IMG/VR virus record: IMGVR_UViG_3300044922_000409 | Span: 1 to 64,000 of that record | Length of the DNA: 64,000 bases | Origin: a virus | Reading direction: 5' to 3' (one strand) | Shown here: piece after piece, positions 6,921 to 32,983 of the stretch | Layout of the letters: every line of letters begins with the position of its first letter | Position numbering within the stretch: position 1 is the first letter of the stretch | Made by a program: the position numbers and the translations under genes | Notes under the pieces: model-generated | Database searches by the model: none | Told to the model about the DNA's origin: nothing | What the model saw: only the letters and a program-made list of their open reading frames with translations

Positions 6921-8438
6921 TTAAACAGTCGGCGTAATTTCCATTCGCCAGTTAGTAGTACTTGCAATATACACAAACGGCACATATGCTCCATTAATAT
7001 CTAATATAAATGCATCAGCAACACCTTCAATTGTATTGCCGCTACCTGGTATCACTGATACCGGATGTGCTAAAAATGTATATGCAACATCCATTACAGC
7101 AACTATTGATCCATCTATCGGCGAGGTCGGAAATGTAATATTAAACGATCCAGCTGTTGAGTCTGCTCTAACTAAATCAATAAGGTTTGCAGTATAATTT
7201 GATGTTTTTATTGGTGTTGAATTTAATCCAGATCCAGATATAACAGTTCCAACCTGCCCCCAATTTGATCCATTATACCCTTCAAAATATCCACTAGCAG
7301 TATTATATCGAATATTGCCGCCTGTAGGTGACCCAGGTCGTAACGACGAATCCCCAGATGGTAATGTAAACGAAGTTGTTACACTAGTTGCGTCAAATGA
7401 CACTCCAGACAATGATAAATTTCCAGTTGTTCTATTAAGTGCTATTGCAGTAGATCCTAAATATAAATTTGAATTTCCTAATACCGTAGACGGAATAGTA
7501 CCAGTTATATTTGATGCTGATAGTGATGTAAGATTTGCACCGGATACTGCACCAAACAAACCGGACCATGTTCCGGTTGTAATTGTGCCAACACTAGTTA
7601 ATGAGGATAGTGTCGATACTGTTGAGTTAACTAATGTTCCAGTAGTTGGCAATGTTACAGTAGTATCAGCAGTAGAAGTAAGTGTTATTGAGTATGAACC
7701 GCTTGTTGCTAATGTTGATCCAGTTACTAATGTCAATGTTGCACTAGTAGCAGGTGATGTAATTATTAATTTGTTAATCGATGTAGCAGTAGCTACACCT
7801 AATAACGGAGTAGTTAATGATGGAGAAGTTGCAAATACTAAACTACCAGACCCTGTTTTATCTGATATAATACCAGCTAGCTGAGATGATGTGGTATTTG
7901 CAAATACTGCTAATGTATTTTCTTTATATGCAATAGTACCGCCAGTATCAAAATTAACTGATGATGCACTAGTACCAGTAAACGATACCGAGTTATTTAT
8001 AGTTAGTGTTTGTCCGTCGACTATAGTTAATGTTGCACTAGTTGCAGGCTCAGTAATTGATAACTTATTTAATGAAGTAACACTAGTTAACCCAGTAAGA
8101 GTCACAGTGTTACTACTTGTAAGGGTTGACGATAAAACAATATTATCATTAGTTGACGCCGATTGAAGAATTAAATTCCCTGTGCTACTTTTAACAGTAT
8201 TTGTATTAATGTTGATATTACCGATATCAACTGTAGTACTCTTAATATTAGTTGAACGAGTAGTTCCGGCAATATCTAGTAAGTATGCAGGTGCATCAGT
8301 ATTAACACCAATTTTAAAATTTATCGGGTCGGGATCAGATAAACTGAAATATAAAAGATGTGATTCGATCGAAAGGTCTAACCCATTCCGCACCAAATTT
8401 GATGCCAACATCGGTCCTGATATGTTACCAATTGCCAT
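6921..8438 (-). CDS. Fibre protein
   Basis: 505 aa, T/S-rich. Motifs ISGPMLASNLVRNG, IGVNTDAP, ISDKTGSGSLVFATSP, GNIRYNTASGYFEGYNGSNWG and a C-terminal KTSNYTANLIDLVRADST domain. Confidence 0.8.
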   Translation of the reverse strand: MAIGNISGPMLASNLVRNGLDLSIESHLLYFSLSDPDPINFKIGVNTDAPAYLLDIAGTTRSTNIKSTTVDIGNININTNTVKSSTGNLILQSASTNDNIVLSSTLTSSNTVTLTGLTSVTSLNKLSITEPATSATLTIVDGQTLTINNSVSFTGTSASSVNFDTGGTIAYKENTLAVFANTTSSQLAGIISDKTGSGSLVFATSPSLTTPLLGVATATSINKLIITSPATSATLTLVTGSTLATSGSYSITLTSTADTTVTLPTTGTLVNSTVSTLSSLTSVGTITTGTWSGLFGAVSGANLTSLSASNITGTIPSTVLGNSNLYLGSTAIALNRTTGNLSLSGVSFDATSVTTSFTLPSGDSSLRPGSPTGGNIRYNTASGYFEGYNGSNWGQVGTVISGSGLNSTPIKTSNYTANLIDLVRADSTAGSFNITFPTSPIDGSIVAVMDVAYTFLAHPVSVIPGSGNTIEGVADAFILDINGAYVPFVYIASTTNWRMEITPTV

Positions 8439-8471
8439 GTATTTTCCTTATTCTACATTCTTATAGTGCAT

Positions 8472-10145
8472 TTATTTGTCAAATCCGTGTAACACAGTAA
8501 CAGGTTTTCCGTATGGTACGCTTGAATTAAATTTTAAATAATATCCTAATTCTACATTTGTTGGCTCAACTATTGTAAATGATGTGTTTATTGCGATAAT
8601 ACTAGTATTAGTTGCTCTATTTAAAGTTACACTTATCAATGCATTGGTTATTGGATCAGATACATAACTAGAAACAGTCGGTAATACAATGTACGTTAAT
8701 CCTGTAGGAGTACCTGCAGTAGTAGTTATTCCGTTGCCAGTTGCAGATGTTGATAATGTAAATGTTGTAGTGCCATTAGTTGCAATAATATAATAGTTAG
8801 TTGGATTTATATATCCTGCTATAGACCCAGTACCACCATATGTGCCACTAATTGTAACTACTTGTCCAACTGCTAATGTAGTCGTAGCGCATGAGAATTG
8901 GCCATCAGTGCCAGTTATTACAACAGTAGTACGCGTAACTTGTAAACTTGTGCTACCACTTACTATCGCACCAATAAGATCACCATCGACATATAGAGTA
9001 GAAGTACTTGCAACCGTACCTAACGAAGTTGACGGAGTCACTGTTCCTGTACCGGCACTAGGATAGCTTAACTGAGACACAATGCCGCTAACTACAGCAG
9101 ACGTTGCAGTTTGCCAAGTATTAACAGTATAACTAGTTCCAGTAGTCGGAGTTCCGGTTGCTGATTGATTAAGTGTATAAGTTCCAGTACCGCCGATGCC
9201 TGTACTCAATGCCGAAATATATGTTCCTACAGTAACGCCTGTTCCTGTAATAACCATTCCGACTCTAATAGTCCCTGATGAAATTGCTGTTACTGTTAAT
9301 ACAGTCGTTGATATAGTTGCAGTAAATAATGCAGAGTTAACTGCTGTAATAAAGGTATTGCTAGCAATTGTTGTGCTAGTTACTACTCCGCCTACTACCG
9401 GTGTACCAGTAGCAGTACCGGTCATTGATAATACATTAGAACTAATAAATCCTGCAGTGTTACTAAATGTAGTAACAGTCGGTGAACTTACTGCAACTGA
9501 TGACACGTTGTATGGTGCTATATTAGTAACATTAATAGTTGCTCCGATTGCAAATGGTACTTGTGTGTTAGTAGGTAATTGTAACACTGTAATAGTTGCA
9601 GTGGTGCCAGTACCAGTAACGCTGGTTATTATCATGCTAGTATTAAAGTTTATAGTTGTTGCTCCGATTGCAGTTGCAACGCTGTTTGTACCAGTATATG
9701 TCTTACTCGATTCTTTAGGATTTTGTACAACAAGATAATTAGTTGTTGATAATTGTATAACATTTTCAACTATTACAATTAAATTTTGTGGTCCCCATAC
9801 TGCATTATTTTGTACAGTAATCGGCGGTGCTGGAGATAATGGACCAAAAAGGGTCGTTACACCATCGCCTGAACCTAAATTCTGTTGGGTAATCTGAGTT
9901 GCTTCTTTAAATCTTAAGCTGCGCCATGCGCCGGCTTGGTATAATTCAACTTCACCATTAGTTGCAACATCAGTGTTATACCGTAGCATACCATTTGTCG
10001 GCGATGCTGGTCGTTGTGCAGTAGTACCACTTGGTAATGTTAAGTTATTAGTAGTAGTCATAACGATAGAATCGTCAGCATTAATGTTTAGTCGTTGATC
10101 GTAAGGTGCTCTACGATTTAAAACTTGTTTTCTTAAATATCTCAT
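8472..10145 (-). CDS. Virion fibre-associated protein with tandem small beta-barrel modules
   Basis: 557 aa. N-terminal [35 protein letters not shown] and VIVENVIQ; C-terminal [18 protein letters not shown]. The Thr-rich middle has repeated xxGxxITGTG-type modules. Confidence 0.7.
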
Positions 10146-23978: not shown

Positions 23979-24021
23979 TTGGATTATCTAGGTCACAAGC
24001 TGGAGATGTTCTAATTAGGCT
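23960..24021 (+). other. Putative -1 programmed ribosomal frameshift signal (slippery T TTT TTC plus 3' hairpin)
   Basis: In-frame AAT-TTT-TTC at 23958-23966. A 12-bp stem (23972-23983/24010-24021, one G-U) starts 5 nt downstream. The -1 frame is open to 24199. Confidence 0.7.
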
Positions 24022-24199
24022 AGACGATGAAGTAATGGCATTTAAACGCGAGCTTTATAGATTATGTTGGTATATGCGAGGTGGTGTATCAATTAACGAT
24101 CTCCTATACAACTTATCATATGAAGATCGTAATGCGATGTATTCAGTAGTTAAAGAAAATATTGAATTAACAAAGACGTCAAGGATGCCGTTACTTTAA
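23960..24199 (+). CDS. gp51-like C-terminal extension in the -1 frame of gp26 (not in the ORF track)
   Basis: FFRSSLIGLSRSQAGDVLIRLDDEVMAFKRELYRLCWYMRGGVSINDLLYNLSYEDRNAMYSVVKENIELTKTSRMPLL*. The frame is closed by TGA at 23942 just upstream of the slippery site; the first ATG is at 24035 with a weak ribosome-binding site. Confidence 0.75.
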   Translation, partial: FFRSSLIGLSRSQAGDVLIRLDDEVMAFKRELYRLCWYMRGGVSINDLLYNLSYEDRNAMYSVVKENIELTKTSRMPLL

Positions 24200-25113
24200 T
24201 CGGAATCTGCATATTTTAATACAAGATCACCTTGTTTATTTCGTTTAAAACGATCAGGGGTATATCCTTGTGCTTTATCTGACGCTTGTTGAGCAGCTAT
24301 ATCAGCAGGGTTTGTTGATGGTTTAGCAGTAGCAGTAGCATCAACTGGTTTATTAGTTGTTGCTGTTGCATTAGCAGGTTTTTCTGTTGCAGTAGGTTTA
24401 GTAGCTGTTGCGTCTATAGGTTTATCAATTGTAGCAGCTTGATCAGCAGGTTTTTCTGTTGTAGCTGCTGCATCAGCAGGTTTTTTAGTTGGCTCACCTG
24501 TTGCAATGCTGTCAGCTTCTGCAATTGCATCTTGCACCATTTTACTAAATTGGTCAACTGCTTGATTAGCTAATGCACCGACATCTTTAACACCGTTAAT
24601 TGTTCCAAATGTTAGAAATTTAGAAAGCATTATTCTGCCTTCTTCTGACGCAATTTTCTGAAACACGTATGTTTGTGCACCTGCAGATAATAAATTAATT
24701 GTATTTGCAATAACTGGCCCAACACCGGGAATAATTCGTATAAATCCAAGCAATGAGCTGATAGATCCAAATACTATTTTTGTTACTAATGCTGAGGCTA
24801 AAGATGAAATTAGCAAACCCATTTGGATATTATGTTCTTCGTTATAATCCATTTGAGCTTCTTTTGAATTTTTTGATTGTTTTAAAACATCGTTAGCATT
24901 TGACATATTTGTAAAATATGTATAAAACGGTTTAAGTAAGAAAAATAAGCCAGCTGCTTTTAATAATTTTAATGCCGCATTTGCAGCTGTAGAGAAGAAG
25001 CCCTCTTGCAATGGCTTAGACGTAGTAGCAGATGCAATTTCTGATAGTTTTCGTAGTTCTTGATGAATGAGATATTCATTCGGTGTTTTAGCAGTAATCT
25101 CGTATATTTTCAT
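24196..25113 (-). CDS. Hypothetical late protein with hydrophobic segments and a KPxDAxAT low-complexity tail; possibly an internal/ejected virion protein
   Basis: 305 aa with MKIYEI start, hydrophobic stretches (AALKLLKAAGLFFLL, GLLISSLASALVTKIVFGSISSLLGFIRIIPGVG), AATAAATA at 25160-25167 and an AGGA site. Confidence 0.7.
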   Translation of the reverse strand: MKIYEITAKTPNEYLIHQELRKLSEIASATTSKPLQEGFFSTAANAALKLLKAAGLFFLLKPFYTYFTNMSNANDVLKQSKNSKEAQMDYNEEHNIQMGLLISSLASALVTKIVFGSISSLLGFIRIIPGVGPVIANTINLLSAGAQTYVFQKIASEEGRIMLSKFLTFGTINGVKDVGALANQAVDQFSKMVQDAIAEADSIATGEPTKKPADAAATTEKPADQAATIDKPIDATATKPTATEKPANATATTNKPVDATATAKPSTNPADIAAQQASDKAQGYTPDRFKRNKQGDLVLKYADSD

Positions 25114-25187
25114 TTATAATCCTGTTTGATAGATCGTACTATCCCTTAATTGTTATTCATATTTATTAAAAAATAATAATCATCTTA

Positions 25188-25230
25188 AGATGAACTAGCG
25201 TTCATCTGTATTTCGTTATCACTCAATACA
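25188..25230. repeat. Two adjacent inverted repeats
   Basis: AGATGAAC-TAGC-GTTCATCT (25188-25207) and TGTATT-N12-AATACA (25207-25230). Confidence 0.75.
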
Positions 25231-25239
25231 TTTTTATAG

Positions 25240-25320
25240 AAGAAACAAAATATAAATTAATATTTAAATATGAAATAATAATTTAAATATGAATTAATAA
25301 TTTATTTAATAATAAAAAGA
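25240..25320. repeat. Extremely AT-rich tract with a duplicated 13-mer ATTTAAATATGAA (25262-25274, 25281-25293); candidate DNA-unwinding element
   Basis: Read directly; almost no G/C over ~80 bp. Confidence 0.6.
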
Positions 25321-25324
25321 TAGA

Positions 25325-25762
25325 TATCACTTTGGAGTCAGATGCACCCTAATAAAACTGGATGCAAGAAATCACCCCATCGCCATGGAATTGCAGTAAG
25401 AATTTAATGACTGTAGACTCTCGCTATTGGCTACCTCCCAACCAACACTTACAGGTATTTTTAAGATATAACTTTCAGGTGCTTTGTATATCATTACGAA
25501 ATTGTTACTATGTCTAGTATTCTACAGATTCTACGGACTCAGCATGCGAGCTTTTTGTCCACCATTCCGATTAAACAAAGCATTGACACCAATGGGGTGT
25601 TGCTTTAAGGCATCCTTATTGCGTTAAGGGTAGTGTTTAAAAGTCGCTATGCAATTAGCGATTTGAACAGCGGTTCACACATCAGGAACTTATCCAGCAG
25701 TATTATTATTCCGGCCTGCTAACCTTATGTTGCATTATATATTAAGTGTTTTGTGTGTTCTG
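25325..25762 (-). ncRNA. Putative large structured non-coding RNA (~430 nt), family not recognised
   Basis: No ORF in the track. At least 7 local hairpins plus long-range pairings. Several stems need G-U pairs that exist only on the minus strand. Perfect TATAAATA immediately upstream. Confidence 0.65.
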
Positions 25763-25767
25763 TCTGA

Positions 25768-25775
25768 TATTTATA
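25768..25775 (-). promoter_or_regulatory. Perfect T4 late promoter TATAAATA pointing into the non-coding region
   Basis: tatttata on the plus strand; no tracked ORF for more than 600 nt downstream. Confidence 0.7.
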
Positions 25776-25805
25776 ATTGTGTTGTTAAGCAACCCGCAGA
25801 AGTGA

Positions 25806-26225
25806 TTAACCTTTACGAGCAGCTAATTCTGCAAGATCATTTGCACGTTCATTACCTGGATTACCTGCATGAGCTTTAACCCATTGCCAATCTATAGTAT
25901 GTGCAGCAGCAACAGTTTCTAATTTAAGCCAAAGATCACGATTTAAGTAATCAGTACGACCTTTCTTTTTCCAATTAGGAAACCATTGTGTAAAACCGTC
26001 AACGAGATATTTTGAATCAGAATAAATTCTAACTTTACATGGTCTTGTTAATCTAGAAAGTGCTTCAATAGCAGCTTGCATTTCCATGCGGTTGTTAGTA
26101 GTTTTTGGTTCTGTTCCAGAAAATTCTTTTATAACGTCTTTGTATTGCATAGTTATTCCCCATCCGCCTTTGCCTGGATTAGGTACGCATGCGCCGTCTG
26201 TATAAATTATTACAAGTTCTTCCAT
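25806..26225 (-). CDS. rnhA: Ribonuclease HI (bacterial type)
   Basis: Motifs YTDGAC.PNPGKGGWG, TTNNRME, SDSKY, NRDLW and WVKAHAGNPGNERA align by eye with E. coli RNase HI D10/E48/D70/H124. Confidence 0.96.
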   Translation of the reverse strand: MEELVIIYTDGACVPNPGKGGWGITMQYKDVIKEFSGTEPKTTNNRMEMQAAIEALSRLTRPCKVRIYSDSKYLVDGFTQWFPNWKKKGRTDYLNRDLWLKLETVAAAHTIDWQWVKAHAGNPGNERANDLAELAARKG

Positions 26226-26305
26226 AGTGTTTTGTGTTAGATTATATTGTGTTTAGTTCTTAAACAAATATTTATCTGAACAACTTCTCCACCTTGTTAG
26301 AAACG

Positions 26306-26334
26306 ATTATACAGTAATAGTATAAGGATGTCAA
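26306..26334 (-). promoter_or_regulatory. Perfect-consensus sigma70 promoter upstream of RNase HI
   Basis: TTGACA (26334-26329), 17 nt, TATAAT (26311-26306). Confidence 0.9.
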
Positions 26335-26338
26335 CTGA

Positions 26339-26860
26339 TCATTTTGCCAAACATAAAGTCTTAACAGCTTCATTGTTTGCATTCCAAAAAGAATCGTAAT
26401 CTGTAAACACCCATTTACCGTTCTTTTTGGAATGATAGTCTACACTTTTTTGTAGTTTGAATTTTTTAATATGTTTATGTTCAAATGCAACATACGAGCC
26501 TTTGCGATTAAACTTCATCATAATGATATTAAAATCATCTGTATCAGCAACTTCTAAAGTTTGCTCAATCCAAGTATCTAAAATCTTAATTTCACCTGCA
26601 GTAAACAATTGATGAAATGGAAAATCAGCATAGGATTTACATTCGGCATTAAAATGTTTCCAATTTAATGGCGGTACAATATCACCCTTCATAGCACGAA
26701 TTTGTCCTTCATGTAAGAAGTCTTTACGCACTGCATTCTTACCTCCGATATAAGCACCGCTGCCTGGTACCCTCATAAAATGACTTCCATATAAAGAGCT
26801 TAAATGTTTTGATACGGTGTTTTCCCAACTGTTCCCTTTTGATTTGCTCTTACTCGGCAT
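26339..26860 (-). CDS. PD-(D/E)xK nuclease, Holliday-junction-resolvase-like
   Basis: Motifs SKSKGNSWE, RVPGSGA, GDIV and AECKSY, in the recombination operon. Confidence 0.75.
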   Translation of the reverse strand: MPSKSKSKGNSWENTVSKHLSSLYGSHFMRVPGSGAYIGGKNAVRKDFLHEGQIRAMKGDIVPPLNWKHFNAECKSYADFPFHQLFTAGEIKILDTWIEQTLEVADTDDFNIIMMKFNRKGSYVAFEHKHIKKFKLQKSVDYHSKKNGKWVFTDYDSFWNANNEAVKTLCLAK

Positions 26861-27189
26861 TATAATTTCCCTTTCCTTTTTATCTTTACTTTAATTATCG
26901 GTTCGATTAAGCCATCTTGTATTTTTTGGTCACGCTCTTGTATTAACGCTTTAGCACGCTTACTTGGAGTTTTAGGAGAGAAATGATAATATCTCCAATC
27001 TTGAACTGTTTTGCGTTGTTCATCACAATAATTTCTAAGCTTAACGCTAAGTTTTTTAATTTCCATTAATTCTTTACGTAAGTCTACAACAGTAGCTGAA
27101 TTTTGTATTGTAACCCAGCGTTGATGTGCTTTAAAGTATTCATTAAATGCATTCATTATTTCGTCGTGTAATTCTTCATTTGGTAACAT
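26860..27189 (-). CDS. Small helical basic hypothetical protein, possibly DNA-binding
   Basis: 109 aa with a K/R-rich C-terminus; AATAAATA at 27209-27216. Confidence 0.65.
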   Translation of the reverse strand: MLPNEELHDEIMNAFNEYFKAHQRWVTIQNSATVVDLRKELMEIKKLSVKLRNYCDEQRKTVQDWRYYHFSPKTPSKRAKALIQERDQKIQDGLIEPIIKVKIKRKGKL

Positions 27190-27226
27190 AATAATTCCAT
27201 ATAATAACTATTTATTAGTCGTGAGA

Positions 27227-27252
27227 ATGCCACTCTAAAAATAAAGTGGCAT
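27227..27252. terminator. Hairpin after the gp46 stop codon, possible terminator or processing site
   Basis: ATGCCACT-N10-AGTGGCAT, without a clear U-tract. Confidence 0.4.
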
Positions 27253-27256
27253 ACAT

Positions 27257-29026
27257 TTATCGGATTTCTAAATCTGTATCGTAGGAAGTAAAACCGTTTT
27301 CCTTTACAACTCTAAGTACATTGTTTACACGTCCAATTAATTCTTCTTTATGACTAATTAAGAACACGTTTTTATGACGTTCTCTTGCCATACCTTTTAG
27401 TACAGTTAACGCACTTTCAATACCATTAGCATCTAAACCGTTGTCAATAAGTTCGTCTACAAATAACAAGTTAATACCTTGATATAGACTTTCCCACACA
27501 TCACGGAATGCCCAAGACATACCTAAAATCAGTCTGTTACGTTCCCCACGGGATAAATTGTCAAAATCTAAATCTTGTCCTAATTGTGTAATTTCGACAG
27601 TTAAATCATTTTGAAATACTACATTATGCGGCAACCCCATCTTATCTAAGTAGTAAGTTAACCGATTGTTTAAGTACGCTAAATTTTGATCTATAATTTT
27701 TTTACGGATAAAACTGTCTTTATTTGTGAGTAGTTTAAGCAAAAACTCTTGGTGATCTTTGAGTGCGTTTGCTTCGTTAATCTTATCCCAACTAATCTCT
27801 TGTAATGCAGCATTCCGCATTTCGTCAATTTGTTCTTGGTATGGATCAGTGTCAACTGCTTTAACTTCTAACTGTTGTTCTAAAGATCTAAAGTTAGTTT
27901 GGTGTTTTAATGCTTGCTCAAGTGTGTCATAATATGTATCTGGTCTAGTTTCAATAACTGTAATATTAGCTAGCTCATTGCATATTTTATTGTAATCAGA
28001 TGACACTTTATCAAAATATTTTTGTGCTTCGAGTAAGTGTTGTTCGGCAGTGTTAAGTAATTCTGTGTGTTTGTGATCGTGTAATTCTTGTTCACAAGCA
28101 TGACATTTTTTGTTATCAAGTGCGTTAATTTCTCTAACATATTTGTCTCTAGTTTTAGTAGCTTGACTTGATGCAGACTCTAAAGTTGCTTTTTCTTTGT
28201 TAAGACTTGCTATTGTTGCACGTTGTTCTAAGTACTCTTTTAGTAACGAATGATTAGCAACTTCAGCTTCAATGTCTACACTTTCCATTTCTACAATGGC
28301 ACGAGCAAGTTTTTCAAGATCAGTTTCTTGTTGACTATACCATGCTTTTTGTCTTAATAACAGGGTATTAATGCTTTGTTGAATACGCTCATTTGACTTT
28401 TTAGCAGCTTCAATGTTTGCAGTTTCTTGATAAATTGTATCTTTGGTTTGTCTAACTTGCTCTTTAAGTGTTTCGGCTTTTTCACTTAGCAATGTAATAC
28501 CTAACAGTTGTTCAATGATTTCTCGTTGATCATTTGCTCTCATTGACAAGAATGGTTCTGTGTAAGTGTTCAATGCAACGATATGTTTGAACATATCATG
28601 ACTCATACCGAATAAGTGATGCAAGTCTTTTTGTGTCTCTCTCATATCGCCTTGTGCATCGTCTGCTAACACTTGTGATTCTTCGTTAACAAAGAACTTA
28701 AGAACAGTTGGTTTGCGTCCACGTTCGATGCGATATGTGTTACCGTCTTTTTCAAAAGACAACGTAACTAACATGTTCTTATTATTGATTTTATTGATTA
28801 AATTATCTTTTTTGATGTTAGTAAGAGCAGAACCGTATAGCGCGTAACTAATAGCGTTTAACATTGCAGTTTTTCCTACTCCGTTTCTAGATCCAGCGTC
28901 ATCACCGCCTTGATCTAGGTTTTCTCCTAATACAAGTGTTAAGTTATCAGTAGTTAAGTTTACTGCTTGCGTTTGGTTACCGATTGAGAGAAAGTTTTTT
29001 GCAGTTATTGATTTAAGTGTTATCAT
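27257..29026 (-). CDS. gp46: Recombination ATPase subunit, T4 gp46/SbcC/Rad50-like
   Basis: KNFLSIGN, Walker A RNGVGKT, zinc hook CHAC, signature LSRGE, Walker B LFVDE and ISH. Confidence 0.95.
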   Translation of the reverse strand: MITLKSITAKNFLSIGNQTQAVNLTTDNLTLVLGENLDQGGDDAGSRNGVGKTAMLNAISYALYGSALTNIKKDNLINKINNKNMLVTLSFEKDGNTYRIERGRKPTVLKFFVNEESQVLADDAQGDMRETQKDLHHLFGMSHDMFKHIVALNTYTEPFLSMRANDQREIIEQLLGITLLSEKAETLKEQVRQTKDTIYQETANIEAAKKSNERIQQSINTLLLRQKAWYSQQETDLEKLARAIVEMESVDIEAEVANHSLLKEYLEQRATIASLNKEKATLESASSQATKTRDKYVREINALDNKKCHACEQELHDHKHTELLNTAEQHLLEAQKYFDKVSSDYNKICNELANITVIETRPDTYYDTLEQALKHQTNFRSLEQQLEVKAVDTDPYQEQIDEMRNAALQEISWDKINEANALKDHQEFLLKLLTNKDSFIRKKIIDQNLAYLNNRLTYYLDKMGLPHNVVFQNDLTVEITQLGQDLDFDNLSRGERNRLILGMSWAFRDVWESLYQGINLLFVDELIDNGLDANGIESALTVLKGMARERHKNVFLISHKEELIGRVNNVLRVVKENGFTSYDTDLEIR

Positions 29027-29894
29027 TATAATGGGTAATAAGTTGAATAAGGGTGTTAAGTTCTATAGAACATTTAATATGTTTAGATATATTGTCTGTG
29101 TAAGGCATCATTACTAAGTTACAAATATGACCAATTATTTCCGGAGGAACGCTGTCTGTAAATCCCTGCCAAACACTAAATTTATGGTCTAAATGATAAG
29201 TTAATCGACCTCGTTTATCGTAGTTTTCTAAAATGGTCAAGTTTTGTTTTCTCGTTTCAGCCCATACTTGTCTTTTATATTGTTCAAACTCAGAATGTAA
29301 ATCAGGCGACATACATAATCCTAATTTTACCTTTGTATCTATAACTCTTTCAAAAATTTCTTTAGTTTTTTCTTTAGGACGGCGGGCAACAGTAAGTTTT
29401 ACGTTAGTAGAAACTTTCTGCTTTAATAACGTTGCTTCATCTTCTGATAAATGTAACCATCGATTTTTTCGTCTATTAATATCATTTATTTCTTCAATTG
29501 ATTTAGATTTTAATGTTTCTTGCCATTTTTGTTGGCGTTGACTCCAAATTTCAAATCCTTCTTTATCACCGTATTTGTTAATACATATTTTTTTAGAAAA
29601 GTTAGTCTGAAACTCTGATAGTTTTAAAGTTGCATCTTCGAATGACAGCCCTTTTGTTAACCAAAATTCTAAACATCGAGGAGATAATTTTCGTTTTTCT
29701 TCAGCAGACATTTCTTTTCGTTTTTTACCTCCTTGTTGCTGTCGTTCTTTTACTAATAAGGTTGCTTCATCTTCTGAATATCCTTTGTTGATATAATATA
29801 AAACATTATTTGGTCTTCTAATTGCAATTTGATATTTTGCGTCATCTTCTGAATATCCTTTTGTAATCCAGTATGACAAAGAAAATACTGACAT
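29013..29894 (-). CDS. Freestanding HNH-type homing endonuclease with N-terminal (Y/F)WxxKGxSxE(D/E)A repeats
   Basis: C-terminal YHLDHKFS...ICNLVMMPYTDNISK. Sits between gp47 and gp46 with its own AAGGAG site and CTAAATA (29913-29919). Confidence 0.75.
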   Translation of the reverse strand: MSVFSLSYWITKGYSEDDAKYQIAIRRPNNVLYYINKGYSEDEATLLVKERQQQGGKKRKEMSAEEKRKLSPRCLEFWLTKGLSFEDATLKLSEFQTNFSKKICINKYGDKEGFEIWSQRQQKWQETLKSKSIEEINDINRRKNRWLHLSEDEATLLKQKVSTNVKLTVARRPKEKTKEIFERVIDTKVKLGLCMSPDLHSEFEQYKRQVWAETRKQNLTILENYDKRGRLTYHLDHKFSVWQGFTDSVPPEIIGHICNLVMMPYTDNISKHIKCSIELNTLIQLITHYNDNT

Positions 29895-29946: not shown

Positions 29947-30960
29947 TCATAGGTTGCTATAGATTGATAATAATGTGTTTTTGTTATAAGTTTCAGAGTC
30001 AATATTTACAATTTGAGTTGCTACAATTTCGTCTATACTTTCAAATGCTTCAATGTCTACGTTGCTTGATACATCTATTGACTTGCGTTCTTCAATTACT
30101 TTAAGTTCTCTTAATTTATAATCTCCAATAAACTTTTCTTTAATAAAGCTAGCTTCTTCAAAGCTAATATCAATGTCTAATGCTACACGTAAGTGTTGAT
30201 TTGGTTTAAGAATCTTATCAGCATCGTCTAAAAGTTGACTTAATTTAACAGTTCTAAATGTAGGTTGATTTGGCCAAGTAAAGAATTCAGGTTGTCCGTC
30301 CCACTCTAAAACCATCATACCTCTTGCATCGTCCCACGCATCTGCATAGTTATGCGGGAATGCATTACCAATGTAATGCATGTTTTCACGTTGCTGTCTT
30401 TTGTGAAAATGACCACTAAAACCAAGTTCATAACTGCTAAAAGCTTCTAAACTAATCTCACCGTGATCTGGCATTTGTACCATTGCGTTCATAAAAAAAT
30501 GAGGTAATTCAAAGTGACCAAAGATATACTTCGCACCTTTCTTACCAATTTCTTTCCATTCATCATGTACTAACCAAGGACATAATGTAACATTTTTAAT
30601 AGTAGTTGGGTGATGAACTACGGTAATTCCGGGGATATATTTGCCAAATTCAACACTGTGTATGTCACGTTTATCTTTGTAATATAGGTCATGATTACCT
30701 GGAAAAAAGTAAAACTCATCAAATGCTTGACCTAATTTTTCCAAAGCTCGAAGGCTGTAATCCATAGTTGTGATGTTTAAACTATTACGATTATGATGCC
30801 AATCTCCCATAAAGATACCAACATCACACCCTTCTTCTTTTGCTTTTGCAATGTACCAATCTACAAAATCTTCACAATCTTGATTGTGAACGCTGCTGTT
30901 TGACTTAAGACCATAATGGATATCGGTAAAAACAGCAGCCTTTTTAAATAAATTATTCAT
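29947..30960 (-). CDS. gp47: Recombination nuclease subunit, T4 gp47/SbcD/Mre11-like
   Basis: Metallophosphoesterase motifs TDIHYG, GDWHH, GNHD, GHFE and SGHFH. Confidence 0.95.
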   Translation of the reverse strand: MNNLFKKAAVFTDIHYGLKSNSSVHNQDCEDFVDWYIAKAKEEGCDVGIFMGDWHHNRNSLNITTMDYSLRALEKLGQAFDEFYFFPGNHDLYYKDKRDIHSVEFGKYIPGITVVHHPTTIKNVTLCPWLVHDEWKEIGKKGAKYIFGHFELPHFFMNAMVQMPDHGEISLEAFSSYELGFSGHFHKRQQRENMHYIGNAFPHNYADAWDDARGMMVLEWDGQPEFFTWPNQPTFRTVKLSQLLDDADKILKPNQHLRVALDIDISFEEASFIKEKFIGDYKLRELKVIEERKSIDVSSNVDIEAFESIDEIVATQIVNIDSETYNKNTLLSIYSNL

Positions 30961-31210
30961 TATTTCCTATTGAACTATATTTTAATAAAAACCAAACTAA
31001 ATCTTTGTTTGTGATAAATGTAACATCCCCGCCAAAACTACTATTAAAATTTACGTTGCATTTATAAGTATCTTCAAAAAGCTTTTCAAGATATCTAGCA
31101 GTGGCATCTGGGTGTTCTTCTCTAAGTATTTTATAAGCAGCATCGAGTGCCGGATGCTGAATATCTAATGAGTTATTCGTGATCTTCTGATCGTCGCATT
31201 GCAATGTCAT
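30953..31210 (-). CDS. Small hypothetical protein
   Basis: 85-aa ORF filling the gp55-gp47 gap and ending KDLVWFLLKYS; start uncertain. Confidence 0.55.
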   Translation of the reverse strand: MTLQCDDQKITNNSLDIQHPALDAAYKILREEHPDATARYLEKLFEDTYKCNVNFNSSFGGDVTFITNKDLVWFLLKYSSIGNNE

Positions 31211-31997
31211 ATTCTTCTGATCCGGTCCTAGTATATGATGGGTTCATTCCGTTCATTTCTAAAATATCATCTCTAATATTTTGATTACGTTTTTCTATGT
31301 TAATAACTCTAACAAATGAATTAGTGCAGGCAGCGGTAAAATATGCAAACGGATTATCTGATTTTGATTCATCAAACTGTAAACCAATTTGTGTTAGCTG
31401 TAATATTGCCTGTCCGCGCATCTCGTCATTGTAAGTATACCCTCTTACATTACCTCTAGTTGCGTATCGCTCACACAGTTTAATCATCATTCTTGCTAAA
31501 GTATCAGTAATTTGTCCTGCAGTTCTATGATATTGCCCTGTTTCTAAGTCCCCTGACCAGTGACTCTTGCCAACGCACACTAAAACATTATCTATAAATT
31601 TCCAATGTTGAAACGGTGGAAAGTTTACTTTGTCTCTTTTATCTGCTTCTGTTTTTGGATTTTTCTTTCTAGTTGCATTTAGTGGAATATGTTCATATGA
31701 CATAATTCTAAATACTAAATCTTCTTTTGCTATAGTTTTATAACTAATTTCACAATCTGCTTGTTTAAGTTTTTCGCCATTGTTCTTTCTAGTTAAATAG
31801 TTTAAATCACCTAGCCGCTTTGCTTGATTCCGTTTTGCATCTGCTATAGTACGAATGTTTATCTTATCTATACTAGGTAAAATTAAATCGTATTGATGAT
31901 ACGATGGGTCAGTAAAAACACAATAAGAGCTTTTTGATCTATGTATTTCTAACAGCATATCTTTGTTGTTTAAGTAATTTACTTTTGGTGTAAGCAT
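31173..31997 (-). CDS. gp55: Late-transcription sigma factor, T4 gp55-like
   Basis: Motifs NYLNNKDMLLEI, RGYTYNDEM and QFDESKSDNPFAYFT. Start moved from 32012 to the ATG at 31997, which has GGAG 9 nt upstream. Confidence 0.88.
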   Translation of the reverse strand: MLTPKVNYLNNKDMLLEIHRSKSSYCVFTDPSYHQYDLILPSIDKINIRTIADAKRNQAKRLGDLNYLTRKNNGEKLKQADCEISYKTIAKEDLVFRIMSYEHIPLNATRKKNPKTEADKRDKVNFPPFQHWKFIDNVLVCVGKSHWSGDLETGQYHRTAGQITDTLARMMIKLCERYATRGNVRGYTYNDEMRGQAILQLTQIGLQFDESKSDNPFAYFTAACTNSFVRVINIEKRNQNIRDDILEMNGMNPSYTRTGSEEYDIAMRRSEDHE

Positions 31998-32022
31998 TGT
32001 TTGTATCTCCATTTACATAGCT

Positions 32023-32051
32023 ATTATAAACTCTACACTTAATAAAGTCAA
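32023..32051 (-). promoter_or_regulatory. Sigma70 promoter for the gp55-gp47-gp46 operon
   Basis: TTGACT (32051-32046), 17 nt, TATAAT (32028-32023). Confidence 0.85.
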
Positions 32052-32058
32052 ATAAATA
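32028..32058 (+). promoter_or_regulatory. Late promoter AATAAATA with an upstream ACACTTAAT element, driving the baseplate operon
   Basis: AAACTCTACACTTAATAAAGTCAAATAAATA, followed by AAGGA and the ATG at 32081. Confidence 0.7.
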
Positions 32059-32080
32059 ATGTAATATAAGGAACACAATT

Positions 32081-32983
32081 ATGTCAATTTCAGGTTTAGG
32101 AGCAGTTGCAGGTGCGGGAATTTCAGCACTTGGCAACGCAGGTAATTTATTAACTAACATACGATCAGCAACGTTGCCTAGAGCAGGCGAAGTAATTGGT
32201 GATTTTATGAGTGTAAAAGCAGCATTTGATGATATGGGAATTGATGATTGGCGAGCAAGACTCACGTTGCCAACGTGGCCAAGTTTTAGAGGAAGTCCGG
32301 TATTAAAGCCATTAGTCGATGCCGGTGGCATGATATTTCCATATACGCCAAACATTCAACTAGCAAGTTCTGCAAAGTACACTACGGTATCACCGATACA
32401 TTCAAATTTTAATTTTCAAGCGTTTCAACATAGTGATCCGGGATCTATTACAGTTACTGCGCCAATGAATGTCGAGGATACTACTCAAGCATTGTATTGG
32501 ATTGCTGCATTACATTACTTTCGATCAATAACTAAAATGTTTTCCGGTAATGATCCAAAAGCAGGGAATCCACCGCCAATTGTAATGTTTAATGCATATG
32601 GAAGTTATGTATTTAATAATGTACCAGTTGTTATAACATCGTTTAGCACTAATCTTACTGCAGAATGCGACTATATTCCAGTTGCTACTGTTACCAGTAA
32701 AGCAGGATTAGTTGCAGGTATGGCAGATGCAGCAGGTCAGGTTTCTAATGCATTTGGATTAAACGGAGTTACTGATATTTTTGATGGTATATCTGAAGTT
32801 GCACAGTTAGCAAATTCATTAGGTACAGGCGGCACAAAAAAAGACGGGACAGCATATGTTCCTACTAAATCGTCGTTTACTATAACAATGGTACCTGCGT
32901 ATAGTAGAACAAGTGCTCGCAAGTTTAGTTTAGATAATTTCGTCGCAGGCGGATATTTAAATAACAGTTTTGGATATTTATAA
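32081..32983 (+). CDS. Baseplate/tail-tube initiator-like protein (gp48/gp54 position)
   Basis: Motifs DWRARL, GMIFPYTPNI, GNPPPIVMFNAYG..VFNNVPVVITSF. First gene of the baseplate operon. Confidence 0.65.
   Translation: MSISGLGAVAGAGISALGNAGNLLTNIRSATLPRAGEVIGDFMSVKAAFDDMGIDDWRARLTLPTWPSFRGSPVLKPLVDAGGMIFPYTPNIQLASSAKYTTVSPIHSNFNFQAFQHSDPGSITVTAPMNVEDTTQALYWIAALHYFRSITKMFSGNDPKAGNPPPIVMFNAYGSYVFNNVPVVITSFSTNLTAECDYIPVATVTSKAGLVAGMADAAGQVSNAFGLNGVTDIFDGISEVAQLANSLGTGGTKKDGTAYVPTKSSFTITMVPAYSRTSARKFSLDNFVAGGYLNNSFGYL

Follow-up and report, generated by a model that had tools for sequence, protein, structure and literature searches.

A conserved structured RNA behind the gp47-gp46 operon of a freshwater giant phage, probably one variant of a modular RNA family

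Comparison of related phage contigs shows a conserved RNA of about 420 nt, predicted to be base-paired and read from the minus strand, behind the gp47-gp46 operon of an uncultured freshwater giant phage. The stretch analyzed, called the window here, is 64,000 nt long (positions 1 to 64,000 of IMG/VR record IMGVR_UViG_3300044922_000409). The surrounding contig is 99.7 kb, a fragment estimated to hold 27% of the phage genome. The clade is that of freshwater giant phages with a T4-like core gene set, and its closest cultured kin are PA5oct, Phosso, and Atu_ph07. Three forms of the RNA are distinguished below: type A, the form in the window; type P, the common form, which bears the Rfam motif RF01718; and type B, a second form. 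Our preferred reading is that the gene at 25321-25741 (minus strand) encodes a noncoding RNA (ncRNA) working as a folded molecule, the type-A variant of a modular family found at one fixed slot in freshwater giant phages, with the neighboring RNase HI gene as an accessory. We put the probability of this reading as a whole at roughly 0.7. Transcription would start at the sigma-70-like and late promoters before RNase HI, so that the RNA is the last part of the upstream unit; this phage would have a further start at the RNA's own TATAAATA. The transcript would run as far as the twin hairpins, and the RNA would act in trans on a partner by means of its three-dimensional fold. RNase HI and an A/T tract would not be part of the conserved mechanism. 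That the region is the gene for a real structured RNA is very probable, and we lean slightly toward a trans-acting role over a purely cis one. The features of the locus are as follows.

26339..26860, minus strand: PDDEXK_15 small nuclease gene, 173 aa (Pfam PF24608, E=1e-25; PHROG "RusA-like resolvase")
26306..26334, minus strand: sigma-70-type promoter, TTGACA-17-TATAAT with TG upstream of the -10 (12/12 match)
26269..26276, minus strand: late-type promoter GATAAATA, 43 nt 5' of the RNase HI start, unchanged across type-A relatives
26226..26237, minus strand: ACACAAAACACT, a 12-nt direct repeat found on both sides of the RNase HI ORF; upstream copy (read in the sequence)
25806..26225, minus strand: RNase HI gene, 139 aa (Pfam PF00075, E=1e-43; E=2e-40 to a solved E. 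coli-type RNase HI)
25768..25775, minus strand: late promoter TATAAATA, with no ORF downstream; candidate own promoter of the RNA
25745..25756, minus strand: downstream copy of the 12-nt direct repeat (read in the sequence), found in most type-A relatives
25681..25739, minus strand: 5' domain of the RNA (leader AACAUAAGGUU, hairpin 1, and a nested hairpin), common to type-B RNAs
25321..25741, minus strand: putative type-A structured ncRNA core, ~420 nt (nhmmer envelope; alignments A1/A2)
25230..25321, minus strand: A/T tract, 92 nt, 93% A+T by composition
25188..25230, minus strand: twin hairpins (25230-25207 and 25207-25188), TGTATT...AATACA and AGATGAAC-GCTA-GTTCATCT
25160..25167, minus strand: late promoter AATAAATA of orf305, 46 nt before the ATG at 25113, kept in relatives
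24196..25113, minus strand: orf305, the late gene closing the slot, without a Pfam or PHROG match

An initial annotation had named an RNase HI gene, TTGACA-17-TATAAT at 26334-26306, a late promoter at 26269-26276, a perfect late motif at 25768-25775, and two inverted repeats at 25188-25230, and all of these are present. The sigma-70-type promoter was read directly on the minus strand, and the two late motifs there are GATAAATA and TATAAATA. Its placement of the RNA at the end of a gp47-gp46-resolvase operon also held, the resolvase being the PDDEXK_15 nuclease.

The gap between RNase HI and orf305 (25805-25114) is 692 nt long, and its longest ORF is at most 51 aa. The window and its relatives share the order gp47, gp46, orf109, nuclease, RNA, twin hairpins, variable late gene, and baseplate hub. 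All 65 gp46-related loci with enough downstream sequence have an ORF-free stretch in the slot, and a profile of the RF01718 hits matches the first third of that stretch in 52 of them (52 of 80 gp46 relatives in all). Each of the three types has a small nuclease gene immediately 5' of the RNA. It is a SegE-type GIY-YIG nuclease of 140-149 aa in 53 of the 55 distinct RNA-bearing relatives, where the RNA starts 0-27 nt past the gene (overlap up to 11 nt), a PDDEXK nuclease in L002, and PDDEXK followed by RNase HI in type A. The PDDEXK_15 gene, the final conserved gene of the operon in the type-A lineage, thus holds the position taken by the GIY-YIG gene in those 53 relatives, and no GIY-YIG gene was found anywhere in the 99.7-kb contig. 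On the other side of the slot, orf305 evolves fast, with 28-50% identity even between type-A relatives, and a query with orf305 against viral contigs found no relatives.

The evidence for structure comes from the type-A relatives. In the 18 RNase-H-linked contigs, the gap is 658-694 nt long with no ORF of at least 80 aa, and indels of 1-2 nt fall inside its largest chance ORFs. The core has 114 predicted pairs, and 96.4% of the cells are canonical. Ten pairs are compensatory, compared to 4.4±1.2 in shuffles and 0-4 in slid controls, in a set of 9-10 distinct, closely related sequences whose long-range helices rest mostly on invariant pairs. The G-U pairs fit a minus-strand reading only. Many unpaired nucleotides in the fold are invariant, and a hairpin of variable length occupies alignment columns 190-248. 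Mean identity is 0.90 in the core and 0.77 at third codon positions of RNase H, a sign of selection on the nucleotide sequence itself. Conserved without a conserved reading frame and with compensatory pairs on one strand, the core qualifies as a structured ncRNA gene. The folding energy of the single sequence does not differ from that of shuffles (z-score ~0 on both strands), and the structured call is therefore based on conservation and covariation in relatives. The initial annotation had described ~430 nt of structured noncoding sequence here; the region is conserved, covarying, and ORF-free, while folding energy alone shows no structure. Its fallback reading, an RNA of a new kind, is borne out by the conservation and covariation of this large, unrecognized ncRNA. 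A decayed gene was rejected as an explanation of the gap since the gap is conserved, stays ORF-free, and covaries.

Contigs from four RNA libraries are identical to the window and cover 25391-25807 in pieces; one of them spans the RNase H stop codon and runs into the RNA. These contigs are assembled and were picked for holding this stretch, and DNA carry-over is possible. Since they are contigs only, nothing is read into uncovered parts or uneven depth. Scanned against Rfam at E<=1 and E<=10, the region gave only chance matches of the snoRNA/miRNA type, and neither the window nor any of six type-B loci has a tRNA or tmRNA according to ARAGORN. When 50,697 phage records were searched by blastn with the region and with a type-P RNA, the only match was a weak one to an RNase H domain, in a gene annotated dnaQ (DNA polymerase III). 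An exact 16-mer scan found seven contigs outside the RNase-H-anchored set. Of these, only L112 proved to be a true type-A relative; the other six were rejected because they have no further similarity and look like chance.

The Polynucleobacter-1 motif (RF01718) was described from 16 examples downstream of GOS11034 genes, none of them in purified phage, and GOS11034 is possibly homologous to PSSM2_218 of P-SSM2 (Weinberg et al. 2010, PMC2864571). In the literature searched, only this original paper mentions the motif. The first 141 nt of type P are this motif, and when the RNA bearing it was followed to its real 3' end, it was ~390-450 nt long. As a positive control, the RF01718 covariance model scored 56-119 bits at the slot in 13 of 16 gp46 relatives. 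The same model had no match in 25300-25790 (E<=10), in 24000-27500 (E<=1), or in the whole 99.7-kb contig (E<=10), and the window RNA does not reach the Rfam gathering threshold of 37 bits. The window RNA does sit in the syntenic slot between conserved flanks, and it is like type P in strand, orientation, downstream twin hairpins, and total length; no function is assigned to either. We take the GIY-YIG gene of the relatives to be of the GOS11034 family. The gene directly upstream in the window differs, with PDDEXK_15 and then RNase HI in place of GIY-YIG. The window RNA also has no second hairpin of the model, as judged by eye, sequence alignment with type P fails for its middle and 3' parts, and its lineage has an A/T tract of 70-92 nt where type P has a UUCG hairpin.

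The connection between the window RNA and type P runs through type B. A covariance model built from type B only, R1, finds the 5' domain of the window at 25681-25739 (30.8 bits, E=1.4e-6) and all type-A relatives (E from 1e-8 to 6e-7), and nhmmer gives the A-to-B link at E=4.5e-6. Hairpin 1 is paired in 65/65 cells, with three of its five pairs compensatory across A and B. Types B and P are collinear in their 3' halves, with E down to 7e-20 when the hairpins are included and 3e-8 for the RNA part. Model R1 found none of the type-P 5' ends. A type-P sequence profile matches type A only at the twin hairpins (window E=2e-7), with no similarity in the RNA body. The kinship of the RNA bodies is thus a chain, A to B by the 5' domain and B to P by the 3' half, without direct A-P similarity. 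This chain fits strong divergence or domain exchange, and by one or the other route type A probably belongs to the same family as B and P. In type A, an unrelated sequence could have taken the place of the ancestral RNA in the middle and 3' parts. As a whole, the family seems to be built from exchangeable domains. MAFFT placed the type-B and type-P hairpin out of register, which makes that alignment an unsound basis for a covariance model of the 3' domain.

The types other than A have one more distinctive feature. Two 7-nt boxes flank the last hairpin and match each other exactly in 20/20 sequences, with seven different box sequences among them. The first box follows CUC and the second UCU, and their spacing is 47-62 nt. 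No box complement was found at a consistent place within 3 kb, and mutual information gave no third column covarying with the boxes. These twin identical boxes are absent from type A, which is another difference between the window RNA and the RF01718-bearing form.

The promoters were compared across the contig and the relatives. ATAAATA occurs 30 times in the 99.7-kb contig, and at 14 of these sites an ORF of at least 90 aa starts within the next 80 nt, compared to 1.2 expected. For this reason, NATAAATA is considered to behave as a true late-promoter signal in this phage. TATAAATA is depleted in the phage (5 sites vs 15 expected). At the position before the RNA, exact TATAAATA is limited to the window and L096/L097, and most type-A relatives have TGTAAATA there; types P and B have no late promoter of their own (0/45 listed and 0/6, respectively). 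The sigma-70-type promoter is the sole 12/12 match to TTGACA-17-TATAAT within the window. All the type-A relatives examined have TTGACT-17-TGTATAAT, including those with a 1.8-kb upstream insertion, in which a Pfam search gave no informative match.

Two other roles for the RNA were weighed against a trans-acting fold. It could be a purely cis 3' element, a long structured 3' UTR that protects the mRNA of the early/middle operon from 3' exonucleases and acts with the twin hairpins to insulate that operon from the next late unit. The RNAs of types P and B begin right at the upstream stop codon and have no promoter of their own, the RNA is followed by a terminator-like hairpin pair, and the RNA-library contig across the RNase H stop codon is what such a 3' UTR would give. 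However, ~420 nt of multi-helix fold with invariant unpaired nucleotides exceed what a stabilizing hairpin needs, in this phage a dedicated late promoter has been gained just before the RNA, and exchange of the upstream gene leaves the RNA in place. We therefore consider the cis role unlikely. It is likewise improbable that the RNA forms a module with the adjacent small nuclease, as its recognition or guide RNA or as a regulator, even though a nuclease gene lies directly 5' in all three types, with GIY-YIG or PDDEXK genes ending 0-27 nt before the RNA, and the twin boxes of the non-A types would be expected if both were read against one common nucleic acid. The nuclease position is the end of the recombination operon and adjacency may be operon order alone, while three unrelated nuclease folds are unlikely to share one RNA. 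The lack of the boxes in type A and of a box complement within 3 kb also count against the module. We are about as doubtful of a wider proposal, in which the slot RNAs would be a modular class of large ornate RNAs, near-universal in the freshwater giant phage clade and always behind a small nuclease gene. Their boxes would be read against an external nucleic acid as in a guide or recognition RNA, and type A would be derived, having lost the boxes and gained RNase HI.

The RNase HI protein is ~50% identical to its E. coli counterpart. In E. coli numbering, D10, E48, D70, and H124 are kept, D134 is replaced by N with a D one position later, and the basic protrusion is 5 aa shorter than that of E. 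coli. With the domain match and three of the four catalytic carboxylates, ORF 26225-25806 is assigned to RNase HI (PF00075). The 12-nt direct repeat brackets the ORF, and the sequence before its upstream copy, AATCTAACAC, is the leader sequence of type-B RNAs. Because of these two observations, RNase HI is best described as a putative inserted cassette, an accessory, lineage-specific gene that appears to have entered the RNA leader. RNase HI adjoins the RNA only in the type-A lineage (the window and L082-L099), and none of the 80 gp46-anchored relatives has an RNase H in the slot. A conserved linkage of RNA and RNase H in relatives, which the initial annotation had expected, was therefore not seen. 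The pairing of the two would be an accident of gene insertion, which argues against pursuing the idea of a replication origin further.

The A/T tract is similarly confined. The initial annotation had described ~80 bp of nearly pure A/T with two 13-mers; the tract is present, at the length and composition listed above, and so are the 13-mers, TTCATATTTAAAT on the minus strand at 25293-25281 and 25274-25262. Their doubling is a tandem duplication private to the window, the relatives having one copy and tracts of 69-83 nt. Within type A the tract is AT-rich but not conserved in sequence. At this position type P has ~45 nt with ~70% A+T that include the UUCG hairpin. By this comparison, the tract is a lineage-specific spacer of type A. 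No other piece of the slot is as widely conserved as the twin hairpins, whose first stem covaries (GTATT/AATAC, ATATT/AATAT, and GTTC/GAAC). Their tail is T-rich in relatives and weak in the window. The twin hairpins are likely the end of the transcription unit.

The initial annotation had preferred a replication origin, in which the A/T tract hosts an R-loop of the folded transcript and a co-transcribed RNase HI processes the primer, as in ColE1. The twin hairpins would in that case be single-strand initiation signals. The layout for this does exist, from the promoters, one of them sigma-70-like and of early type, through an RNase HI that retains three of four carboxylates and the ~420-nt structured transcript, to the A/T tract and the hairpins. 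The hairpins are kept as far as PA5oct, and covariation by itself cannot separate RNA from single-stranded DNA. The likeness to the ColE1 RNA II/RNase HI origin is in layout only, a long folded transcript with RNase HI and an AT-rich region downstream. Here, the RNase H is phage-borne and lineage-specific, the RNA of the relatives persists where RNase H and the A/T tract are lacking and a GIY-YIG or PDDEXK nuclease gene stands upstream, and no plus-strand promoter for an antisense regulator of the RNA I type was found inside the RNA. The conserved coupling of primer RNA, RNase H, and origin, with its antisense RNA, that marks ColE1-type origins was not found at this slot. The T4 origins oriF and oriG consist of a middle promoter and a downstream unwinding element, and the window is like them in having a promoter and then an easily unwound A/T tract. 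It differs in that the promoter directly upstream, the RNA's own, is of late type and the tract, ~420 nt farther downstream, lacks conservation outside type A; in T4, origin-dependent initiation is early and uses middle promoters. The sigma-70-like promoter is 1 kb upstream of the tract. T4 R-loop origins need only a promoter and an unwinding element, and T4 origin transcripts are not known to be conserved folded RNAs. Since ~420 nt are conserved here as a multi-helix fold, the RNA is suggested to act via its folded shape. An inflection of cumulative skew near 25.2-25.3 kb had been set beforehand as a test for an origin, and none was found at 25.2 kb, a weak test in a T4-like phage with ~27% of the genome on the contig. 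Across the 99.7-kb contig, cumulative GC skew follows gene orientation, with its extremes at the orientation switches at 31-32 kb and 66-67 kb. With RNase HI narrowly distributed and cassette-like, the A/T tract limited to type A, no turn of the skew near 25.2 kb, and the fold conserved, the origin reading is not supported by the sequence data, and we consider an origin with an RNase HI-matured primer highly improbable.

Few RNAs are both large and intricately folded, and those that are well understood have central tasks, as ribozymes or as the cores of RNA-protein machines. The present RNA, ~420 nt kept at one spot across a whole clade of uncultured giant phages, resembles the large ornate phage and prophage RNAs GOLLD and ROOL (cryo-EM work, PMC12286853) in being over 400 nt long, intricately folded, and phage-borne, with no known protein partner or function. 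It is smaller than these and has no sequence or structure match to either Rfam model. So far, only the 141-nt Rfam motif of 2010 has been catalogued from its family, whose members are much longer and include sequence types that the Rfam model misses. In the cultivable phage PA5oct, the A, B, and P profiles have no match in the slot, and the four published ncRNAs of that phage lie elsewhere in its genome. The same slot in PA5oct is an ORF-poor stretch of 1.4 kb, with a look-alike hairpin pair before the next gene.

Behind the RNase HI gene lies a genuine gene for an RNA, which belongs as a new sequence variant to a phage RNA family that is known but still uncharacterised; a replication origin at this place is very improbable. 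The window covers the first 64 kb of an IMG/VR virus record that is 99.7 kb long and, by the CheckV estimate, 27% complete. Close relatives of it are carried on 372-kb contigs, near-identical copies of the stretch are present in lake-water metagenomes, and the gp46 protein has its nearest cultured kin in the giant phages PA5oct, Phosso and Atu_ph07 (44-49% amino-acid identity). Together these point to an uncultured giant phage from fresh water that carries a core set of T4-like genes. The gene neighbourhood is as follows.

Genes around the RNA in the window
29947-30960, minus: gp47-like SbcD
29013-29894, minus: orf293, an extra gene between the gp47-like and gp46-like genes, with only weak PHROG matches, none to a family of assigned function
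27257-29026, minus: gp46-like SbcC
between gp46-like SbcC and the PDDEXK_15 nuclease, minus: orf109
26339-26860, minus: PDDEXK_15 nuclease
25806-26225, minus: RNase HI
between RNase HI and orf305, minus: ORF-free gap of 692 nt
24196-25113, minus: orf305
plus strand: baseplate-hub gene

Anchoring on RNase HI retrieved 18 close relatives (83-96% amino-acid identity). Every one of the 18 has, behind RNase HI, a gap of 658-694 nt that lacks ORFs of at least 80 aa, and this gap is kept even though identity of the gene beyond it falls to 28-50% among the same relatives. Alignment columns matching window positions 25741-25321 were highly conserved, and identity in the core of this RNA, called type A, was 0.90 compared to 0.77 at third codon positions of RNase H. 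RNAalifold predicted 114 pairs. Canonical pairs filled 96.4% of the cells, compared to 31.6-42.6% in slid controls, and 10 pairs had changed on both sides, compared to 4.4±1.2 in shuffled and 0-4 in slid alignments. The hairpins vary by paired substitutions, one of them also in length, and several conserved G-U pairs are possible only if the minus strand is the one that folds. The folding energy of the window RNA had a z of about 0 on both strands and is thus uninformative on structure; the structured non-coding stretch proposed by the initial annotation was borne out by conservation and covariation in relatives and gained no support from folding energy. Pieces of 25391-25807 were identical to contigs from four metatranscriptome runs (two studies), which records presence in RNA libraries rather than transcription as such, and one such contig spans the junction between the RNase H stop codon and the RNA. 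The type-A RNA did not match known models of ribozymes, tmRNA, RNase P, OLE, GOLLD, ROOL or HEARO.

With gp46 as the anchor (60-79% identity), the same genomic site, or slot, was compared in 80 loci; all of them lack RNase H and the gap sequence of the window. RF01718 (Polynucleobacter-1) scored 56-119 bits at the slot in 13 of 16 loci tested, and a profile of these hits matched 52 of the 80 (type P). The match covers only the first third of the type-P ORF-free stretch. The remainder also covaries (35 of 50 predicted pairs compensatory), and the RNA extends for about 390-450 nt, into a conserved 3' domain, a UUCG hairpin and the twin hairpins that the window has at 25188-25230 (minus). Type B, invisible to RF01718, occurs in 9-10 loci. 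Further types were seen in four (L064:7516-7996, L065:8465-8945, L075:8417-9140 and L059:9576-10164), where the 3' domain is the common one and the 5' domain has no match to RF01718 or to the A/B 5' model. The sequence ends too early in the unclassified loci. The family looks modular.

RF01718 had no match in the window or the whole 99.7-kb contig, even at E≤10. Type A thus fails the model score that defines RF01718 and is not filed as a member. A type-P sequence profile matched type A only at the twin hairpins. R1, a covariance model trained solely on the 5' domains of six type-B RNAs, matched every full-length type-A RNA in the right place and on the right strand (25681-25739 in the window, 30.8 bits, E=1.4e-6; E=1e-8 to 6e-7 in type-A relatives). 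Hairpin 1 was paired in 65/65 cells, with compensatory change in three of its five pairs across A and B. The 3' half, in turn, is collinear between types B and P. A chain of similarity therefore runs from A to B through the 5' domain and from B to P through the 3' half: type A combines the A/B-type 5' domain with its own body, type B the same 5' domain with the common 3' domain, and type P the RF01718 5' domain with the common 3' domain. This pattern reads like one of exchangeable domains and, with the chain, is why type A is filed as a divergent variant of the slot-RNA family.

The initial annotation preferred an RNA-primed replication origin at 25.2 kb, with RNase HI as the primer-processing enzyme. 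Every motif it named was found in place by direct read, including TTGACA-17-TATAAT at 26334-26306, the sole perfect match within the window, and the A/T tract is real (92 nt, 93% A+T). The two 13-mers in it come from a tandem duplication private to the window. A tract this long and purely A/T is found in type A alone, and its sequence is not conserved there. Comparison of the syntenic gap gave the same division: the ORF-free RNA is kept, whereas RNase H and the long tract are confined to type A. The coupling to RNase H is thus not conserved; no RNA of this kind adjoins the RNase H that comes next in similarity in IMG/VR (L100, 55% identity), and RNase HI is a passenger. In T4, origins fire early, whereas the promoter directly upstream of the RNA is a late one. 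Cumulative GC skew over the 99.7-kb contig had no inflection near 25.2 kb. Its minimum at 31-32 kb (window ~31000-32100) and maximum at 66-67 kb (contig ~66000-67400) both coincide with large gene-orientation switches, the one at 32 kb being the divergent gp55/baseplate promoter region; the skew tracks transcription direction. The layout resembles ColE1 only superficially, and we consider an origin here very improbable.

RNase HI itself is, judged by its residues, a normal E. coli-type enzyme: it keeps the counterparts of E. coli D10, E48, D70 and H124, has N in place of the fourth carboxylate (D134) with a D directly following, and lacks five residues of the basic protrusion. A 12-nt direct repeat, ACACAAAACACT, flanks the ORF (26237-26226 and 25756-25745, minus), as would be expected had the gene entered the RNA leader as a cassette. 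Directly before the upstream copy lies AATCTAACAC, the leader that immediately precedes type-B RNAs. The sigma-70-like and GATAAATA promoters before RNase HI are kept in every type-A relative examined and may originally have served the RNA. In some type-A relatives, an insertion of about 1.8 kb lies between the PDDEXK gene and these promoters (L085:1161-2981, L087:844-2878, L099:909-2884); it holds either a single ORF of 606 aa or a pair of 333 and 348 aa on the opposite strand, with no informative Pfam match.

TATAAATA is rarer than expected (5 sites, 15 expected). ATAAATA is strongly clustered upstream of ORFs (14 of 30 sites, 1.2 expected), so NATAAATA works as a late-promoter signal in this phage. 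The copy at 25775-25768 has no ORF downstream. The late-promoter motif was absent within 150 nt upstream of type-P and type-B RNAs, so these are most simply the tail of an operon transcript. The gene upstream of the slot RNA in 53 of 55 distinct loci encodes a SegE-type GIY-YIG nuclease (140-149 aa); its end lies 0-27 nt ahead of the RNA start or at most 11 nt inside the RNA. PDDEXK_15 takes this position in type A and in L002 (L002:8060-8581), the locus closest to the window by gp46. This looks like non-orthologous replacement at one position; no GIY-YIG gene was found in the 99.7-kb contig.

The type-A RNA is a conserved, minus-strand, multi-helix element at the 3' end of a recombination-nuclease operon, followed by the hairpin pair and the next late promoter. 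It would be co-transcribed with the genes upstream and, in this phage, additionally late from its own TATAAATA, with the transcript probably ending at or before the twin hairpins. It may act on a partner through its fold. Its size and many invariant unpaired bases argue for a role beyond mRNA stabilisation.

Types P, B and the further types carry two 7-nt boxes around the last (3') hairpin, the first preceded by CUC, the second by UCU, spaced 47-62 nt apart; type A in the window is without them. The two boxes were identical to each other in 20/20 aligned sequences (L048:8741-8815, L042:4702-4780, L064:7780-7862, L075:8752-8830, L059:9952-10030 and 15 more), across seven forms: AGAUAAU, GGAUAAU, GGAUGAU, ACAUGAA, GAAUAAU, ACAUGAU and AGAUGAA. 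Within type P, the first box position was A/A in 27, G/G in 17 and mixed in none. No complementary partner was found within 3 kb. Since the boxes are identical and not complementary, both may be read against a single external template.

In PA5oct (NC_071039.1), the slot (L126:~8018-9530, record 75.7-77.2 kb) measures 1.4 kb and contains just four annotated ORFs, all tiny. It was unmatched by the A, B and P profiles and lies outside the four published PA5oct ncRNAs; it has a strong TTGACA-17-TATAAT promoter and, before the next gene, a hairpin pair similar to the twin hairpins of the window. As for the rest of the operon, gp47 directly adjoins gp46, without orf293, in all 80 gp46-anchored relatives having that region.
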